From a virus (lineage: Duplodnaviria; Heunggongvirae; Uroviricota; Caudoviricetes), in IMG/VR virus record IMGVR_UViG_2654587996_000008: a stretch of 14,413 nt of DNA; one strand, given 5' to 3'. The number at the start of each line of letters is the position of its first letter. The first letter of the stretch is position 1. Positions 2,610 to 13,198 of the stretch are shown here, piece after piece. The translations under genes and the position numbers were made by a program. The notes under the pieces were generated by a model. That model worked only from the letters and a program-made list of their open reading frames with translations, was not told where the DNA came from and did no database searches.

Positions 2610-3137
2610 TCATTGATGGTCTGATTTTTCCCACTCAGCCAGGGCGTTTAACCCGGCTTCACTCCATGATTCCGGTTCATCGGGATAATCACCTGCAACA
2701 TAGCAGAGTTCGCAACGCAGCATACGAATTGCCAGCCTGGCATTACCTCGCAAATTGTATTTTTCAAAGTAATGCTGCCCTTCATCATCCTCAAGGCAGA
2801 TAGCACCATCATCAAGAAAGTGCACTTCCCAGCCTAATTCCCCGGCTGCATACAGCACACGCTGCTGTATGCCCTCGTCCGTTACTGGCGCAGGAATTTT
2901 ACCGTCTCTGGCCTTAACTGCTTTCCAGAACTCGCCCCATGTCATTTCCAGCGTTCTTTCTGGCCACATTTCAGAAATGGTGTCTTTCCCCTGTGCTGGT
3001 GGGCTGTTCCGCTGCTCTGTCGCTTCCACATCAATTTTTTTACCGGACATGACCACTTCGCCTTTCTCGAGCCAGTCGTAAACTGTCTGGCGGCTTACGC
3101 CTTTGTATTTGGCGTATTCGGCTTTACTCATCAACAT
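2610..3137 (-). CDS. Nu1-like winged-HTH DNA-binding protein (possible terminase-small-subunit-like / packaging-redirection protein)
   Basis: About 175 aa from the ATG at 3137 (SD 'GAGGTG' 7 nt upstream; the ORF track's earlier ATG at 3155 lacks an SD). N-terminus 'MSKAEYAKYKGVSRQTVYDWLEKGEVV' resembles lambda Nu1 'KKQLADIFGASIRTIQNWQEQGMPV'. The repeat array lies immediately 3'. Confidence 0.5.
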   Translation of the reverse strand: MLMSKAEYAKYKGVSRQTVYDWLEKGEVVMSGKKIDVEATEQRNSPPAQGKDTISEMWPERTLEMTWGEFWKAVKARDGKIPAPVTDEGIQQRVLYAAGELGWEVHFLDDGAICLEDDEGQHYFEKYNLRGNARLAIRMLRCELCYVAGDYPDEPESWSEAGLNALAEWEKSDHQ

Positions 3138-3236
3138 GTAGCTCACCTCATGCATATACGATAAAAAATAATTTCATGCGGAAAGGGAATGCGTTGTGGG
3201 TATGGAGGAAAGGGGCAATAACCGCCCCTTACTGAT

Positions 3237-3509
3237 TCAGTTGCGCCAGGATGGCTGGCTAAGCGTGGTTTTCATTACATCATTGACGACCTGTTTTACG
3301 ATTTCTGTGTTGGCAGTCGTGCTTTCAACATCAACAAAGCCATAATCGCCAATTTCCACCGTCAGGGATTCCAGTTTCTTCCCTAGAGCATCAGGCAACT
3401 CTCCACTGAACCGGTGCTGAAGATTTTCCACCAGCAACGCCCTGAATGCCTCGCTGTTCTCTTTTTTCTGCCATAGCTGGCGTTTATCCACTCTGATATT
3501 TAATTTCAC
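3237..3509 (-). CDS. Hypothetical protein (90 aa), coupled to the upstream RHH gene
   Basis: ATGA start/stop overlap with the upstream gene at 3506-3509. No recognised motif. Confidence 0.45.
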   Translation of the reverse strand: MKLNIRVDKRQLWQKKENSEAFRALLVENLQHRFSGELPDALGKKLESLTVEIGDYGFVDVESTTANTEIVKQVVNDVMKTTLSQPSWRN

Positions 3510-3673
3510 AGTCTCACCTCTTTAAGTGCCTTATCCATCAGTTGCCGAGCGATAACATGAATCGACGGTGCCACACCAAGCACAGATTTCTGACGCTCTT
3601 CGTCCTGGATGCGTTGCAGGGCTTCGATCTGCCTCCGGGAAAGTAAAACTGGCTTTACTCCGTGATTTTTCAT
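3506..3673 (-). CDS. Small ribbon-helix-helix-like DNA-binding protein (55 aa)
   Basis: ATG at 3673 with SD 'AAGGGA' 6 nt upstream. 'KPVLLSRRQIEALQRIQDEE...VLGVAPSIHVIARQLMDKAL' fits a beta-strand plus two helices. The longer 107-aa ORF-track form adds a Cys-rich N-terminus translated from AT-rich intergenic DNA and is rejected. Confidence 0.5.
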   Translation of the reverse strand: MKNHGVKPVLLSRRQIEALQRIQDEERQKSVLGVAPSIHVIARQLMDKALKEVRL

Positions 3674-3692
3674 GATGATCCCTTCTGAATGA

Positions 3693-3710
3693 CAATAATT
3701 GCAATTATTG
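3693..3710. promoter_or_regulatory. 18-bp perfect palindrome CAATAATTGCAATTATTG (putative operator)
   Basis: Lies 20-37 bp upstream of the RHH gene start. A related partial copy 'ACAATTGCAATAA' sits at 3734-3746. Confidence 0.45.
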
Positions 3711-3951
3711 CACAAATTGAAATGATACCAGAGACAATTGCAATAAATGAAACGAAAAGCATCAATAAACCAACCTTCGGCACTGAATGCTCTGATTTTT
3801 CTGCAAAGGTATGGCAGATGTTGGTGCATGCAAACATAAAGGCAATAGCAGAAGAAACAGCGGGGAGTGAAAAGGGGAAGTTTTTATAAATACACGATTG
3901 TCGCCTCACTGCAGGTTAACAGCCACAAGCTCCATGATAATAACTTGTTAA

Positions 3952-4275
3952 TTATTTCATCAGATTTTTCATTATTTGCGCGATTGAATACACAAGCAAA
4001 AACTCGGCAGCCGCAAGAGTATAAAAAACATAAATTCGCTTAGCCCACCGACGATGAAAGAACTCCTCAGCATGGCCGGATGTTCGAGATACAAGCCATG
4101 CACCTACTGCACACAGAGCAGGTGCAATGAGCACAGTTATAAACCAGATTGTGATGCCCATCCCATGCCTACTGATAATAGCCATTGGTATTGCAAAAAT
4201 GAATGTTAGAGCAGCATTAGCTAATAGAATATCTTTTAAAGTATTTTCAATTAGTTTTTCTAGATTATCTTTCAT
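3952..4275 (-). CDS. Small integral membrane protein (107 aa, 2-3 predicted TM helices)
   Basis: Hydrophobic stretches 'LLANAALTFIFAIPMAIISRHGMGITIWFITVLIAPALCAVGAWLV' and 'IYVFYTLAAAEFLLVYSIAQIM'. ATG at 4275 is preceded by a G-rich SD. Confidence 0.55.
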   Translation of the reverse strand: MKDNLEKLIENTLKDILLANAALTFIFAIPMAIISRHGMGITIWFITVLIAPALCAVGAWLVSRTSGHAEEFFHRRWAKRIYVFYTLAAAEFLLVYSIAQIMKNLMK

Positions 4276-6787: not shown

Positions 6788-8536
6788 TTATAAAAATTCC
6801 TCGGTTCTCTCCGTTTGTATAACGTTGGTTTGTATTCGTCCTTTAAAACCTCTTGTCAGGTATTCAGCCCCATATTCTCTTGCTGCTGACTTCATGGCCT
6901 TACCAAAATCACCGACACTTAATATTTCTTCTTCCCCCATATACTCCATAAAGGCGAGATATAGTCTGTACAGGCTTGTACGCGGATTAAGATCAGTTAA
7001 TCTCTTACCGCCTCCCATCATCATCCCATGCGGTTCATCAAGAAATGCAAGCGCCGCACATAACCCAATGACAGGATCAGTTTCCTGTTTTATTTTCAGA
7101 GCTTCGGCACCGTCGCGCTGCTCCAACAATAATTCCCGTGCTTTTTCTGGATCGGAAAAGTTAGCCAGTAATCGACGAATAATGACAGGTATTTCCGCCG
7201 CTATCTTTTGCGGTAACTCTTTATCCTTTTCGGTCTCCCTTACAATATTATCGAACCGAAAAATTACACGTCGACGCGCAACGCCTCCGGCCCGTTCGGT
7301 GAATGTCATCGGCACGTTATTTGTTGCCAGCACGACGGACCTGATAATTGTTGTGAAACGCTTTTCATATTTCGGGTTAATTTCAACTGGATCTCCACCC
7401 GTTATTTTTTTGATGCCGGATCCTTCACCTGTATATTTCGGCTGGTCTGCCAGGACAATAAGACGACTTCCGACAACCTGCGCACGCCCGCCAGCATCAT
7501 CAAGTGATGTCATTTCAGCGCTTACCGTGTTCTGTTTCCCTGCCAGAAGGGTGGCTATGTGCGTGATTGTGCTCTTGCCGCTCCCACCTTCCCCTGTGGC
7601 CTCAATAAACATCTGCCAGTCGTACCGGTTCGCCATAATCATGTACAGCGCGGCGCATATACGCATCATCTTTCGCGGGTCTTTTCCTGCGGCGTGATCA
7701 AGCCATTTATGAAAGTTTGGCGCGTTGTCGCGGATGTTCTCCCCTGGTACTGGTGGCGTGTACTCAATGCCGTTATGCGTGGTGATCCAGTTATCCGGCG
7801 AGTGCGGGGAAAATTCGCCAGTTTTCATGTCAAGCACGCCATTAGAGAACGGCAATAAATCACCTGACGGCTCCCCCATTGGCCTGGCCATAACTTTTAA
7901 AGCATCCACTGTATTACTTATTGCTCTCCGACTAAATGATGTTCCGTTTTCTTCGTAAATAGCCACCATTTCACGACTAAGATCCAGTGTGCTTACCGGA
8001 ACCCAAAAATCATCGCGCCAGACGTGAACAACCTCACTCTCCTGATTCATTGCTACATCCTGAAATCGTTCAGCTAAAAGTTTTGCCCTTTGGCTGTCCG
8101 CCATTCTGGAAAGAGATATTTTGTGTTTTTTCTCGGTCCTTCCTGACAGAATTTCTCCGCGCTCAGCCTGTCCGCGGATCCGTTGCAAGTAGTCGCGCCA
8201 GTTCTCCGGCTCCCGGTCGGTGATACCTTTGTATAATTTCGCCTCCTGTACGCCAGCCAGCGCCAGCTTTTCAGCGATAGCATTGATCTGGATTGGTTCG
8301 ATCTCTCCCGCGAGATAGACACGCGCAAAGCGGCGTTTCTCGTCAATAATGCGGATATTCGCCAGGTCTGCCAGTTGCTTTGGCCCCAGGTAAACAGGTG
8401 GTACGTTATCGCCGTGTTTTCGTCCTTCGCTTTCAATCCAGTGTTGAGCATGGGAGTAAGCGTCCGCCCCGGCAAAAATGATTACCTCTGTGAATTTATC
8501 CTTCGGCTGATATTTTAAATTCGGTGCGTTTTTCAC
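6788..8536 (-). CDS. P4-family primase/helicase (D5-like, Walker A P-loop)
   Basis: 582 aa with Walker A 'GEGGSGKST' and a phage/plasmid primase C-terminal-type region. GTG start at 8536 with SD 'GGAGG' 7 nt upstream; GTGA overlap with the upstream ORF. Confidence 0.85.
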   Translation of the reverse strand: MKNAPNLKYQPKDKFTEVIIFAGADAYSHAQHWIESEGRKHGDNVPPVYLGPKQLADLANIRIIDEKRRFARVYLAGEIEPIQINAIAEKLALAGVQEAKLYKGITDREPENWRDYLQRIRGQAERGEILSGRTEKKHKISLSRMADSQRAKLLAERFQDVAMNQESEVVHVWRDDFWVPVSTLDLSREMVAIYEENGTSFSRRAISNTVDALKVMARPMGEPSGDLLPFSNGVLDMKTGEFSPHSPDNWITTHNGIEYTPPVPGENIRDNAPNFHKWLDHAAGKDPRKMMRICAALYMIMANRYDWQMFIEATGEGGSGKSTITHIATLLAGKQNTVSAEMTSLDDAGGRAQVVGSRLIVLADQPKYTGEGSGIKKITGGDPVEINPKYEKRFTTIIRSVVLATNNVPMTFTERAGGVARRRVIFRFDNIVRETEKDKELPQKIAAEIPVIIRRLLANFSDPEKARELLLEQRDGAEALKIKQETDPVIGLCAALAFLDEPHGMMMGGGKRLTDLNPRTSLYRLYLAFMEYMGEEEILSVGDFGKAMKSAAREYGAEYLTRGFKGRIQTNVIQTERTEEFL

Positions 8537-8823
8537 TTCTTACCTCCCGCAACCAACATTGCCCGGATTTTTTTAATATTCTTGGCTGCACGTCTCGCCA
8601 CCGCCTGTTGTTTGTTTTCAACCAGAATAAAATCACGCTCAAACTGACGACGCGGCATTACGCAGTCATATTCGTAAGCCTCACGGCGGTAGGTGATATT
8701 GCCTGGCGTAACGTGACGAATAACCACTCGTCCCCCACGTCTGGTGTCGCGGTAAATATCTCCGTGTCTGATTTCAGGCCGAGAGAGACCGCTGGCAGTA
8801 AAGCCAGAATTTTTCTTTTTCAT
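8533..8823 (-). CDS. Hypothetical small basic protein (96 aa)
   Basis: SD 'AGGAAA' upstream of the ATG at 8823; coupled to the primase start. Confidence 0.5.
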   Translation of the reverse strand: MKKKNSGFTASGLSRPEIRHGDIYRDTRRGGRVVIRHVTPGNITYRREAYEYDCVMPRRQFERDFILVENKQQAVARRAAKNIKKIRAMLVAGGKK

Positions 8824-9254: not shown

Positions 9255-9612
9255 GTTTACCCCCCTGAATGACCTGATAACCGCAACTGGTCAGCAATTC
9301 GATAAATTCCGGCAATGTGCCGAAACAGTAATCATCACGCAGACGTTCGCGGGATACTTCAACGCCGTTTTCGTAGTGACTCACCATACACCCGGTAAAA
9401 CGCAGATCATCATCGTGATGGCACGTTGACGGCTTAATCAGTCGCGCACGCTCCGCCAGTTCCAGCAATGCTTCAACGCTTCCGGCAATTGCACCATCCG
9501 GCAGGTGATAATTACTTACTACGCGTCCATTCTCTACATTGACCAGTAGCTGCCCGGTAAATTTCTCATCAAACTGAATGCTGTTAAGGTCAGAAATAGA
9601 CGAATTATGCAT
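9247..9612 (-). CDS. Hypothetical protein (121 aa)
   Basis: ATG at 9612 is preceded by a perfect 'AGGAGG' 6 nt upstream; the ORF-track ATG at 9630 is rejected. ATGCATAA overlap with the upstream ORF. Confidence 0.5.
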   Translation of the reverse strand: MHNSSISDLNSIQFDEKFTGQLLVNVENGRVVSNYHLPDGAIAGSVEALLELAERARLIKPSTCHHDDDLRFTGCMVSHYENGVEVSRERLRDDYCFGTLPEFIELLTSCGYQVIQGGKHA

Positions 9613-9829
9613 GGTGCACCTCCTGCACATCAGCCATGATAATTTTTCCGGCCTTATCCAGTGCCTGATCGGCTTTTAGCTGCACAAATGCTAAATAATG
9701 GGAGATGCATTCTGATTCTCTGACTGCGTGTTTATGCGCCACACCAGCGATAGCTGAAATCTCAATAAGTGAATCCATCAGCGTTTTGATAGCGTCTACC
9801 GCTGCATCAGGCCATGTTGCATTACACAT
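9605..9829 (-). CDS. Hypothetical protein (74 aa)
   Basis: SD 'AGGAGG' upstream of the ATG at 9829; ATGTGTAA overlap with the upstream ORF. Confidence 0.45.
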   Translation of the reverse strand: MCNATWPDAAVDAIKTLMDSLIEISAIAGVAHKHAVRESECISHYLAFVQLKADQALDKAGKIIMADVQEVHHA

Positions 9830-10025
9830 GCTCCACCTCCTGGCGAATACGGGCAGCGAATACCATCACGCAGCCATCAGGGGATTGCTGGCGTGCTTCC
9901 TGTTCGCTGGTGGCCTCGATGTGAATTACGCGCGGTTGTGCTGTGCTCAGGGCGATAAAACGCCAGATGTATTTATTCAGGTTGTGCGAGTCCCGCCCTT
10001 GCGGGTGTGTGGTATGATTTCTCAT
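9822..10025 (-). CDS. Hypothetical protein (67 aa), first gene of the replication operon
   Basis: Internal ATG of the long stop-free frame, at 10025, with SD 'GAGGT' 5 nt upstream. Translation 'MRNHTTHPQGRDSHNLNKYIWRF...'. Confidence 0.45.
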   Translation of the reverse strand: MRNHTTHPQGRDSHNLNKYIWRFIALSTAQPRVIHIEATSEQEARQQSPDGCVMVFAARIRQEVEHV

Positions 10026-10122
10026 AGCTACCTCGATACTGTTGCTATCGTTGGTGGTTAGAAGCCCGGTTAGTGTTAGCGCACTGCCGGGTTTCGTCGT
10101 TTCTGCACCTTGCATCAACAAG

Positions 10123-10174
10123 GTGTTGAACACCAATTTAAACCTAGGTGTTAAACACGTCAAGTGTTGAACAC
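10123..10174. promoter_or_regulatory. Three 11-bp palindromic operator-like sites GTGTT(G/A)AACAC in a divergent control region
   Basis: Sites at 10123-10133, 10148-10158 and 10164-10174. The third overlaps a plus-strand -35-like 'TTGAAC' (10167-10172), with -10-like 'CATACT' (10190-10195) upstream of the RHH gene. Confidence 0.55.
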
Positions 10175-10224
10175 TTGTTTTTTTTCCTGCATACTGCATT
10201 TGTTTTTTGTGAGGGGGACACAAC

Positions 10225-10404
10225 ATGGCGACAAAAGCAGTAAACGCAAAATCACAAACAGTTGCGGCAAGGGTTCCGCATGAAGTTATGAACAATGTTG
10301 AGGCGGTAAAAATGCCTGGTGAAAGTACAGGGCAGTTTGTAACAGCAGCATTAAAGCGAGAAGTTGAGTACCGCCAGCGGCGCAAGGCCAAAGAACAGGA
10401 GTAA
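10225..10404 (+). CDS. Small ribbon-helix-helix-like regulator (59 aa), not in the ORF track
   Basis: ATG at 10225 with strong SD 'GAGGGGG'. Translation 'MATKAVNAKSQTVAARVPHEVMNNVEAVKMPGESTGQFVTAALKREVEYRQRRKAKEQE' fits a beta-strand plus two helices. The only clearly plus-strand gene, divergent from the replication operon. Confidence 0.5.
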   Translation: MATKAVNAKSQTVAARVPHEVMNNVEAVKMPGESTGQFVTAALKREVEYRQRRKAKEQE

Positions 10405-10661
10405 CCATCACCAGCGCCGTGGTGTGAGGAACGACGGTGCATCGTTTTACAGGGCAGCGCCATGACCAACAAAGAATCAACCAATACACCATCACCGGCC
10501 CGGAAAAGACAGCGCAGAAAGATAGCGTACGAGTATGAGTCAGACAGATTCGCGCCCTGTGCGTTTATCCTTGAGAATTTCCTTAAAGAGTACAGGCGCA
10601 CAAAAATGGGGTCGCATACCTGGAAAACATCGCGACATGGCAATGTTAAAGAGCCGGAATA

Positions 10662-11084
10662 GCCCACCAGCAAGCCAGCACACTGATCACATTGCCCACC
10701 AGCCGCAAATCTGGCATTGTTGGCGATGTGTTCAAGTGTGTAGCTTTCCCACTGGTGGCCCTCTGCGGTCGCCTTTGTTTTATCCAGAACGAAATCAGAC
10801 ATCAGATTAATCAGCACCTGGCGACCTGACAAAAACGCATCAGTCGCGCCACCAGCAAAATTTTTTGCTTTCCGGACAGCGTGACCAACGACATTTTGCA
10901 GCAAAATATTCTGCATTTCTGGCGTGCTGTAGTAACGGTGATCAGCGCCTTCACTCTGTGCGACCACAACGCTATAATCTGCCTCGTAGACAGTAAGCAA
11001 TATGGCGCAGTAGGCTATTCGTTCACAAAGGCGCTCCGGCAACGGGGCGCTTTCTCTTTTTGTAACGGTCAGAGCGTTACACAT
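10662..11084 (-). CDS. Hypothetical protein, 5' portion only; 3' end undefined (possible disrupted gene)
   Basis: ATG at 11084 overlaps the antirepressor stop (ATGTGTAA). The first ~140 residues look protein-like, but the frame then runs stop-free through regulatory DNA to 9822, so the true end cannot be set. The end coordinate is arbitrary. Confidence 0.25.
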
Positions 11085-11925
11085 GGCTGTTTTCCTCCAT
11101 GCGACGGGCTAACCAACGCTGCGAAAGACGAATTAATTCAGCTTTCCGCTGGTGGTAGCCCTGGCCTAACTCAATCAGCGTGATATTGCTCTGCTCAAGG
11201 TAAGAAAGGTGCTCAAGCTGCAACGTGCTCATGTGGTCGCGTGGTTCGCCTGTGATGCCGTTCGCCTGCGCCCACTGTTTTGCAGTCATGCCACCCAGCA
11301 CGATACGCGCCAGCATATTGGCTTCCGTGGTGTAGTGGTGCTGGAACGTGTTTTTATCCAGTTCAGCCCGGTACGCCTCCAGCGCGGCACACATTGGCTT
11401 AAAGTAGCTGGCAACTGTGATACGGGCTTTCATTTCCCGGCGTAACGCTGCGGAACGCACTGGCGCTACCTTGTGTAGCTCCTCCTCGCATTTGATGAAG
11501 TACTGACGAACGGCGCGGCCCTGTTCGGTGCGTTCGACCATCGCCAGTTCTTTCGCCATGTTCGTGGAGATCAAATAGTCTTCACTGCGACGATCACCGC
11601 CGCGCTTTGTTGTCCAATCAGAATCAAACTGTTCAATATTTACACTTTGGTTCCCCCATTTCGGGGAATCAAAGTACAAATTTTCTACAACTTCAAAATC
11701 CACACCCTTTTTAAATCCGTACTCATCAATGCGTCCTTTAATCCAGGTTGTGAAATCACGACCTACCCCGAGCGCCTTATGCGACGCTCTGGCGCTAACA
11801 ATATTGGTTTCACGCCCGCCAATAACGCCGGAAATAACCGGGATAATTTCGCCAAAATTTTGCAGATTCTGGTTTTCAGGCCGAACGAAGCCCTGCCCCT
11901 GTACGGGCGTTTTTCGCAGTTTCAT
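11077..11925 (-). CDS. Phage antirepressor-like protein (AntA-type N-terminal domain plus KilA-C-type C-terminal domain)
   Basis: 282 aa with SD 'AGGAG' upstream. 'SARASHKALGVGRDFTTWIKGRI' and 'MAKELAMVERTEQGRAVRQYFIKCEEEL' match antirepressor domain signatures as I recall them. Confidence 0.6.
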   Translation of the reverse strand: MKLRKTPVQGQGFVRPENQNLQNFGEIIPVISGVIGGRETNIVSARASHKALGVGRDFTTWIKGRIDEYGFKKGVDFEVVENLYFDSPKWGNQSVNIEQFDSDWTTKRGGDRRSEDYLISTNMAKELAMVERTEQGRAVRQYFIKCEEELHKVAPVRSAALRREMKARITVASYFKPMCAALEAYRAELDKNTFQHHYTTEANMLARIVLGGMTAKQWAQANGITGEPRDHMSTLQLEHLSYLEQSNITLIELGQGYHQRKAELIRLSQRWLARRMEENSHV

Positions 11926-13070: not shown

Positions 13071-13198
13071 TCTGTGCTACCTCGCACCCTCTGTAAAAGT
13101 GGCTGTGCCAGCCCGCAGAGGTGTACGGGTTTTCAGGAGCGACCCTAGACACAGCCTTTTCTTAATCGCTCAAAGTCTACTACTGTATACTCAACCAG

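Follow-up and report, generated by a model that had tools for sequence, protein, structure and literature searches.

A conserved 420-codon reading frame enclosing antisense genes and a nested Icd-like gene in a P4/PICI-type island: a possible counterpart of P4 eta/kil

What keeps a single reading frame open for 420 codons where it crosses a regulatory region and the complementary strand of other genes? The question is raised by IMG/VR virus record IMGVR_UViG_2654587996_000008, 14,413 nucleotides (nt) of DNA from a virus of the Caudoviricetes (the window, meaning this whole stretch), in which a minus-strand open reading frame (ORF) encoding 420 amino acids (aa) extends from 11084 to 9822. Judged by its genes, the window is a satellite island of the P4/PICI type (PICI, phage-inducible chromosomal island) at tRNA-Thr. 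A first-pass annotation made from the letters alone had proposed either the loss of a stop, by deletion or fusion, from a gene that begins at 11084, or an unusual overlapping arrangement. From comparison with related islands we conclude with high confidence that the open frame is under selection and is not a scar. As to its use, we consider it probable, with reservations, that the long ORF is the counterpart of the nested eta/kil genes of phage P4, translated mainly for read-through of the repressor/immunity region.

In the ORF listing of the window the frame is uninterrupted from an ATG at 11084-11082 to a TAA at 9824-9822, exactly as the first-pass annotation had read it. Across this interval the other two minus-strand frames are interrupted by 20 and 23 stops, and an open run of 420 codons far exceeds chance, as had been supposed. 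The earlier impression that the first ~140 codons resemble protein while the middle does not agrees with the codon statistics, which give +0.19 to +0.26 bits/codon for the first ~134 codons (Ant and primase, +0.21 to +0.23) and ~0 bits/codon for the middle. Two further features that had been noted are likewise present. The last 67 codons form a gene with a Shine-Dalgarno (SD) sequence of its own (9822-10025, minus strand; ATG 10025-10023, GAGG at 10034-10031, 5-nt spacer), which is in frame with the long ORF and ends at its stop; the Icd-like model NF033153 matches long-ORF aa 372-415 (E = 4.5e-19, 68.2 bits against a cut-off of 25), and this part also matches phrog_6196 (E = 2e-54). The frame also crosses three palindromic 13-mers and the antisense of a ribbon-helix-helix (RHH) gene of the YlcI/YnfO family (ylcI, 10225-10404, plus strand; NF041551, E = 2e-16, 59.7 bits against a cut-off of 30). 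A second plus-strand gene downstream of ylcI, orf66 (10462-10662; phrog_21027, E = 3e-29; a hypothetical protein according to the Prokaryotic Genome Annotation Pipeline, PGAP), encodes a small, very basic protein. The long ORF, on the strand opposite to theirs, encloses both genes completely.

The start of the frame is tied to the gene upstream of it, ant (11077-11925, minus strand), which belongs to the AntA/AntB family (PF08346, E = 1.9e-21; PGAP annotation of a 96.8% identical relative). At the start junction (11077-11098, minus strand) the ATG overlaps the ant stop TAA (11079-11077) in the sequence ATGTGTAA, and a GGAGG (11098-11094) lies 9 nt upstream of it. The long ORF is therefore placed such that translational coupling to ant is probable, and ant would supply it with both ribosomes and transcripts. 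Wherever the N-terminus is intact the ATG has the identical placement, and 24 nt upstream of it the frame is closed. At the other end, the ATG of a 74-aa gene (9605-9829, minus strand; phrog_5146) overlaps the Icd stop via the same ATGTGTAA junction and opens a chain of overlapping ORFs reaching the primase gene (overlaps at 9829/9822, 9630/9605, 9254/9247, 9028/9021 and 8536/8533). The chain of overlapping or abutting ORFs from ant to primase is unbroken only when the long ORF is counted; without it, a 1-kb gap lacking translation would extend from 11077 to 10025. The junction GGAGG..AGC-ATG-TGT-AA thus occurs twice in the window (11077-11098 and 9822-9843, minus strand), and the two ORFs that follow it both start with MCNA; possibly it marks a boundary between modules that is used repeatedly in recombination or coupling.

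To compare relatives we used the first 100 aa as the sole anchor, so that sampling was blind to the downstream sequence. This yielded 32 metagenome loci, one from E. ruysiae and eight from E. coli genomes, which we denote by L numbers where one has to be told from another. A single frame runs from the ATG at the Ant stop to the Icd stop in 35 of the 38 relatives that have both the N-terminal part and Icd, the open spans measuring 852-1605 nt (283-534 codons). Among 36 distinct span sequences, window included, 33 have zero stops in the long frame; the other five frames over the same spans contain 5-34 stops each. When only segments with less than 80% nt identity to anything counted earlier are retained, 1279 non-redundant codons remain, with no stop in the long frame and 69 and 74 in frames 1 and 2, corresponding to P ~1e-32 for zero stops at the rate of the other frames. 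The spans are mosaics in which every length difference is divisible by three. Codons 94-226 are present or absent depending on the relative, cassettes of 45, 126 and 135 nt are variably present, and some loci contain an inserted Phage_ASH/C4 module. Compensated frameshifts were considered as the source of the variable patches (IAYCAILL.. versus ITYSTAMF..) and rejected, as at the DNA level these patches prove to be recombined and divergent, with indels of 3 and 6 nt.

These data bear directly on the proposal that a separate gene of ~140 codons from 11084 lost its stop and that the frame then happened to be open as far as icd. A shift in composition at about codon 135 and a few database proteins that stop before Icd (for example P0001, P0017, P0018 and P0021) would fit such a fusion scar. 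However, no relative carries an ancestral stop at a common position, and the open spans include forms without codons 94-226; the probability of such openness by chance is the figure given above. As the open frame is conserved across distinct mosaic spans, we reject the lost-stop reading, which we regard as extremely improbable. The other half of the first-pass proposal, an unusual overlapping arrangement, is what we find: a conserved and selected frame that contains antisense genes and a promoter. That annotation had also envisaged a genuine long gene, with the same uninterrupted frame and a conserved protein throughout in homologous islands; the uninterrupted frame is indeed there, whereas conservation of the protein is confined to the Icd part.

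Three loci depart from the single open frame. L008 is frameshifted, in an element with an IS3 insertion, and L035 carries a single stop. In L038 a homing-endonuclease-like module (HNH_3 + AP2) is fused in frame to Icd, giving a 225-aa gene (3351-4028, plus strand), and the long ORF terminates 8 nt inside the start of this inserted gene, so that ribosome coverage would stay continuous. This exception fits the read-through model. At another locus, L004 (1820-2908, minus strand), an ORF with a BRO-N domain runs in frame through antisense ylcI into Icd, where PGAP reports a truncated BRO-N pseudogene and a separate Icd-like gene. Judging from this case the long frame can begin with different Bro-network domains.

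We then asked what is constrained, the amino acids or only the absence of stops, using two ratios of nonsynonymous to synonymous change (dN/dS) by segment, pooled Nei-Gojobori and site-wise. Pooled and site-wise values are 0.72 and 0.74 for aa 1-93, 0.90 and 0.90 for aa 94-134, 0.60 and 0.50 for aa 135-226 (antisense to orf66), 0.38 and 0.29 for aa 227-287 (antisense to ylcI), 0.86 and 1.20 for aa 288-353 (promoter/leader), and 0.33 and 0.17 for aa 354-420 (Icd). The C-terminal 80 aa of Ant, which are 96-100% identical in all loci, served as control and give a site-wise value of 0.17. A six-frame scan finds a clean coding signal for Icd in the long frame only. In the ylcI segment the signal lies in the frame of ylcI itself (0.29), and the orf66 segment behaves alike but more weakly; for aa 1-93 and the promoter/leader segment none of the six frames has a coding signal above the others. 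Upstream of Icd the long frame is thus largely free of amino-acid constraint: to judge from these comparisons, constraint at the protein level is limited to the last ~67 codons (Icd/Kil-like), and the rest is near neutral or mirrors ylcI and orf66. AlphaFold2 gives a predicted local distance difference test score (pLDDT) below 50 for residues 1-368 and of 71-77 for the Icd domain. The N-terminal 134 aa have no match in Pfam, NCBIfam or PHROG. Among 1.84 billion representative proteins they have 18 HMMER matches, essentially all to this element family, the last three being weak, partial and to long unrelated proteins; in a collection with one genome per species they are found at a single locus, that of E. 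ruysiae.

Two patches of the long ORF are invariant or nearly so, 'DKTKATAEG' (columns D97-T106 invariant) and 'SAPLPERLCE' (S12-E21 nearly invariant). The former coincides with an intrinsic-terminator-like site on the plus strand (10754-10783) at the end of the ylcI-orf66 unit, the latter with a second plus-strand terminator-like site (11028-11063) just before the convergent ant gene. Conservation of both patches is plausibly at the nucleotide level. We note that these two hairpins match the only near-invariant peptide patches in the N-terminal part of the long ORF. A promoter-like site lies between the terminators (TTCACT, 17 nt, TATAAT; 10950-10978, plus strand) and could drive a short transcript ending at the second one.

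The antisense genes themselves vary in a way that makes the open frame informative. In ylcI the third codon positions fall on those of the long ORF, and its 17 protein alleles, of 59 or 101 aa and with identities down to 35%, always lie inside the long frame in the same frame relation. The antisense frame is open in 16 of these 17 alleles, and upon synonymous recoding of ylcI it stays open in a fraction of only 0.10-0.30 per allele. Selection on synonymous sites of ylcI is thereby implied. In L029 YlcI is replaced by a 57-aa Arc-like RHH gene (2983-3156, minus strand; weak Pfam Arc match, E = 0.006), which is also present in L033, L034, L036 and L038 and again lies antisense inside the long frame, which is still open. 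The orf66 gene is intact, with the conserved core ERFAPCAF..LE.FLKEYR, in almost all loci in which the module is present, and truncated to 53 aa in L015; orf66 is absent from whole islands.

Could the frame be open merely as a passive by-product, being the antisense of plus-strand genes in a stop-poor frame, with no selection on the minus strand? The coincidence of third codon positions, which holds for orf66 as well as ylcI, and the constraint that mirrors the plus-strand genes in these segments are what one would expect from such an origin. Yet of the 353 codons that precede the short Icd gene the two genes span only ~127, and aa 1-134 and the promoter/leader segment have no plus-strand gene opposite them and are nevertheless stop-free in all alleles; even within ylcI an open antisense frame would be expected at the low recoding frequencies just given. 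We consider this explanation very improbable.

Between ylcI and icd lies what appears to be a divergent control region. Three predicted palindromic operators of the form A(G/A)GTGTT(G/A)AACAC (10121-10133, 10146-10158 and 10162-10174; 13-mer AGGTGTTGAACAC; GTGTTGAACAC) bracket a predicted sigma-70 promoter facing icd (10135-10163, minus strand; TTGACG, 17 nt, TAAATT), identified by its match to the consensus only. This predicted promoter lies inside the long ORF and would correspond to PLE of P4. A candidate ylcI promoter, TTGAAC-17-CATACT, is found on the other strand. We compared the ylcI-icd intergenic region of the window (10121-10224) with those of L005, L006, L008/L010, L011, L024 and L035. 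Hexamers resembling CTTGA(C/A)...TAAATT are seen by eye at the same position in other alleles, but a consensus scan scores a site in no more than 4 of 9 intergenic allele types. The inverted repeats are allele-specific and covary with the N-terminal, DNA-reading part of YlcI, while the promoter hexamers keep their positions. As the operator repeats change with the YlcI N-terminus, they behave as expected for immunity-specific repressor/operator pairs. YlcI is the probable repressor of the island, and the covariation suggests several immunity specificities within one island family.

The start of the short Icd/Kil-like gene also seems to be addressed by RNA. A candidate cis-antisense small RNA (sRNA) of ~80 nt is encoded on the plus strand (10010-10108) opposite the Icd SD and start codon, with an extended -10 element just upstream (TGGTATGAT, 10010-10018) and with hairpins at 10025-10060 and 10061-10095 followed by a U-rich tail. 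Folding of this region is strand-specific, with -37.2 kcal/mol (z -4.7) for the plus strand and -20.6 kcal/mol (z -1.3) for the minus strand. An alignment of 12 alleles supports 27 consensus pairs, including plus-strand-specific G.U pairs and 3 compensatory pairs. SymR (RF01809) scores remain below its gathering score of 61 in the window (32.9 bits), in L041 (35.3) and in L006 (30.8), and when E. coli genomes were searched by blastn with the sequence of the sRNA, nothing identifiable as symR was returned. The RNA is thus probably a cis-antisense sRNA and not a member of the SymR family; together with its Kil-like target it resembles a type I toxin-antitoxin pair. A second class of Icd start occurs among the relatives, in which MAGTQHTQTHP and a 135-nt module (KFIYTFLAVHRDC..ISATWKGREENTLFIQKCENN) take the place of the MRNHTTHPQGRDSHNLNK start of the window and lead to a longer short-form Icd (L005, L011-L015, L017, L020, L022, L029, L032, L033 and L041).

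How might such an arrangement work? As the long ORF starts 1 kb upstream of the short Icd gene and overlaps the ant stop, it would be translated only from transcripts begun upstream of ant. In the repressed state YlcI would shut the internal promoter, and the antisense RNA would block Icd translation from leaky transcripts. Upon induction, transcription from upstream of ant would enter the region and ribosomes coupled to ant would translate the long ORF. They would cover a 1-kb stretch that is otherwise without translation, including the segment antisense to ylcI, where the minus-strand RNA is C-rich and G-poor (~10270-10350, and again at ~10040), a composition compatible with Rho loading if untranslated. 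Ribosome cover may in this way shield the read-through transcript from Rho-dependent termination, and translation would pass the sRNA-covered Icd start into the overlapping replication genes irrespective of any activity of repressor and sRNA. The selected trait would be the lack of stop codons and not the polypeptide upstream of the Icd domain. We infer the activity of the internal promoter, the role of YlcI and the read-through from upstream from the arrangement of these elements, and the role in Rho-dependent anti-termination by analogy with P4; a function of the long ORF in translation and anti-termination seems to us fairly probable. A bolder formulation, which we advance tentatively and would place a little short of even, is that 1 kb is read on both strands, one encoding an RHH repressor, a small protein, terminators and an sRNA, the other a stop-free, 'meaningless' frame of 350 codons that exists solely for ribosome-escorted read-through. 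Selection for the absence of stops would then include the synonymous sites of the repressor gene, and the locus would represent a protein-repressor version of the P4 immunity bypass, not described before.

The contrary position is that the product of the long ORF is a true 'Bro-network' protein with several domains, namely a long isoform of Icd/Eta whose upstream part has a sequence-dependent function, for example in regulation or helper-phage interaction, and is fast-evolving or diversifying. Avoidance of stops would then be ordinary coding. Many sources annotate 318-392-aa 'Icd-like' proteins with the long-ORF N-terminus, such ORFs are treated as domain-swapping Bro-network proteins in PMC10111431, and both the gene-like codon usage of the N-terminal 134 codons and the in-frame fusion of the L004 BRO-N domain to the antisense-ylcI/Icd stretch speak for it. 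It is difficult to reconcile with dN/dS of 0.7-1.2 outside Icd against 0.17 in neighbouring genes, with the lack of a coding frame in aa 1-93 and the promoter/leader, with the low pLDDT up to residue 368 and with the lack of homologues beyond the element family. Moreover, opposite-strand genes, operators and terminators dictate large parts of the sequence, and modules come and go freely if the frame is kept. We therefore regard a protein of this kind as unlikely.

Several points nonetheless weigh against translation for read-through as the purpose of the long ORF. The dN/dS values pool non-independent pairs of recombining, mosaic sequences, and the AlphaFold2 alignment is shallow, with 19 sequences. 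In the N-terminal 134 codons the statistics are gene-like and dN/dS is somewhat below 1, and these codons may represent a weakly constrained or fast-evolving protein domain. The step of anti-termination rests on the analogy with P4, taken from a secondary summary, and the CI RNA and seqA, through which P4 immunity acts, were not found in the window. Finally, the long form is mostly absent from the PGAP annotation of close relatives.

The genomic context is that of a satellite. On the minus strand the gene order is int, an alpA-like helix-turn-helix (HTH) gene, ant, the long ORF, small genes and primase. In E. coli N921, which is 96.8% identical over the queried 1.9 kb, the island adjoins tRNA-Thr and proA and is annotated with an integrase, a hypothetical protein, an AlpA-type HTH protein, AntA/AntB, an Icd-like protein, small genes, a DUF5906 primase, ProQ/FinO and PerC. 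The layout of int - alpA - Bro/Ant - replication at a tRNA gene, as read from the genes, matches Gram-negative PICI/P4-type satellites, for which this order has been described (PMC10111431; PMC13612085). The window further contains the int-alpA RNA motif (13087-13155, minus strand; Rfam, 49.8 bits against a gathering score of 35.8), which lies downstream of int and directly upstream of a 251-aa gene preceding the alpA-like gene and is found in most relatives. Annotation of the region is uneven. In relatives PGAP calls the Icd gene with either 67 or 134 aa and usually leaves 10663-11076 without any gene, and other records hold 'Icd-like' proteins of 318-392 aa beginning MCNALTVTKRESAPLPERL.

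The model accounts for this disagreement between pipelines, which in hundreds of E. coli genomes assign the 'Icd-like' protein a length of 67, 134 or 320-390 aa, and it cautions comparative studies against taking ORFs of this kind for ordinary 'Bro-network' proteins. It also offers a concrete and testable scheme by which PICI/P4-type satellites may override their own repressor on induction. If the frame is indeed selected for translation and not for its product, it would be an unusually long and clear natural bacterial case of 'translation as a regulatory act'. The locus in addition provides a well-supported complete antisense gene overlap, in which the constraint on one strand (no stops) is separable from that on the other (amino-acid sequence). 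The eta/kil principle itself has already been published for P4 and noted for PICI Bro zones. Among the papers searched we found neither a form in which the frame harbours, antisense or internally, a protein repressor gene together with a second gene, operators, terminators and an sRNA, nor a quantitative demonstration that absence of stops alone is conserved, with the synonymous-site selection in ylcI that this implies.

The closest known system is that of P4. In P4 (X51522) a 214-codon ORF (8168-8812, minus strand) begins at the end of ORF88/vis, is matched by NF033153 at aa 161-208 (E = 1.4e-20) and has the C4/CI RNA and isrK/seqA elements inside. The C-terminal part of the window ORF is homologous to P4 Kil; a tblastn search of a phage collection with the Icd part missed P4, and the homology is seen only with the NCBIfam profile. 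In both elements a short killing or division-inhibitor gene of the Icd-like family shares frame and stop with a long ORF that starts at the end of an upstream regulatory gene, and either long ORF can be called a 'scene of multiple regulatory activities'. In P4 a promoter lies inside the long ORF, and in the window one is predicted in the corresponding place. The window ORF is, however, twice as long (420 versus 214 codons), is coupled to ant and not to an alpA/vis homologue, and contains antisense ylcI and orf66, a divergent operator-promoter region and plus-strand terminators. For P4 eta itself, Forti et al. reportedly gave a length of 197 codons in 1999. The window is without the C4/CI RNA, isrK/seqA and the Phage_ASH region: with Rfam, whether at the gathering score or with E<=5 as the limit, the window gives no match to C4, isrK or c4-a1b1, and the Pfam search finds no Phage_ASH (PF10554) in its long ORF, in contrast to P4 (E = 4.5e-23) and L002 (E = 3.5e-17). 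In L002 and L027 one long ORF passes over antisense ylcI, then isrK, C4 and the Phage_ASH module and finally Icd, and by this composition the two loci bridge the window form and the P4 form. As summarised from Forti et al. 1999 in PMC10111431, P4 has a constitutive promoter inside eta whose transcript is terminated via CI-seqA interaction, and eta translation is reported to prevent termination; the same source describes Kil as a truncated Eta, the full-length protein being translated only from the upstream late promoter. The predicted internal promoter of the window would apparently be under a protein repressor, whereas that of P4 is under an RNA.

Other systems share single elements of the arrangement. 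The candidate sRNA recalls SymE/SymR (RF01809), in which an RNA of ~75-80 nt with two hairpins likewise lies opposite the 5' untranslated region, SD and start codon of a gene that inhibits growth, beginning beside the start codon of this target; the inner terminator loop of the window RNA, GUGUUAGCGCAC, also resembles that of SymR. It differs in that the score is below the gathering score, the target is Icd-like and not SymE, and the RNA is a prediction. In the P1 immI region the translation of Icd is RNA-controlled and linked to the expression of neighbouring genes. The window shares with P1/P7 immI (c4 RNA - icd - ant) the linkage of an Icd-family division inhibitor to an antirepressor-family gene and, if the candidate sRNA acts as predicted, RNA control of Icd translation and its linkage to the expression of neighbouring genes. 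The order is reversed, with ant upstream of icd, C4 RNA is lacking, and P1 has neither such a long overlapping frame nor antisense repressor genes. Translated leader ORFs that gate Rho-dependent termination, as in classical polarity and upstream-ORF control, are short, from a few codons to some tens, and lie clear of other genes. The proposed logic is the same, in that ribosome occupancy, and not the product, would decide the access of RNA polymerase to downstream genes, while the track in the window extends over at least 350 codons and overlaps antisense genes.

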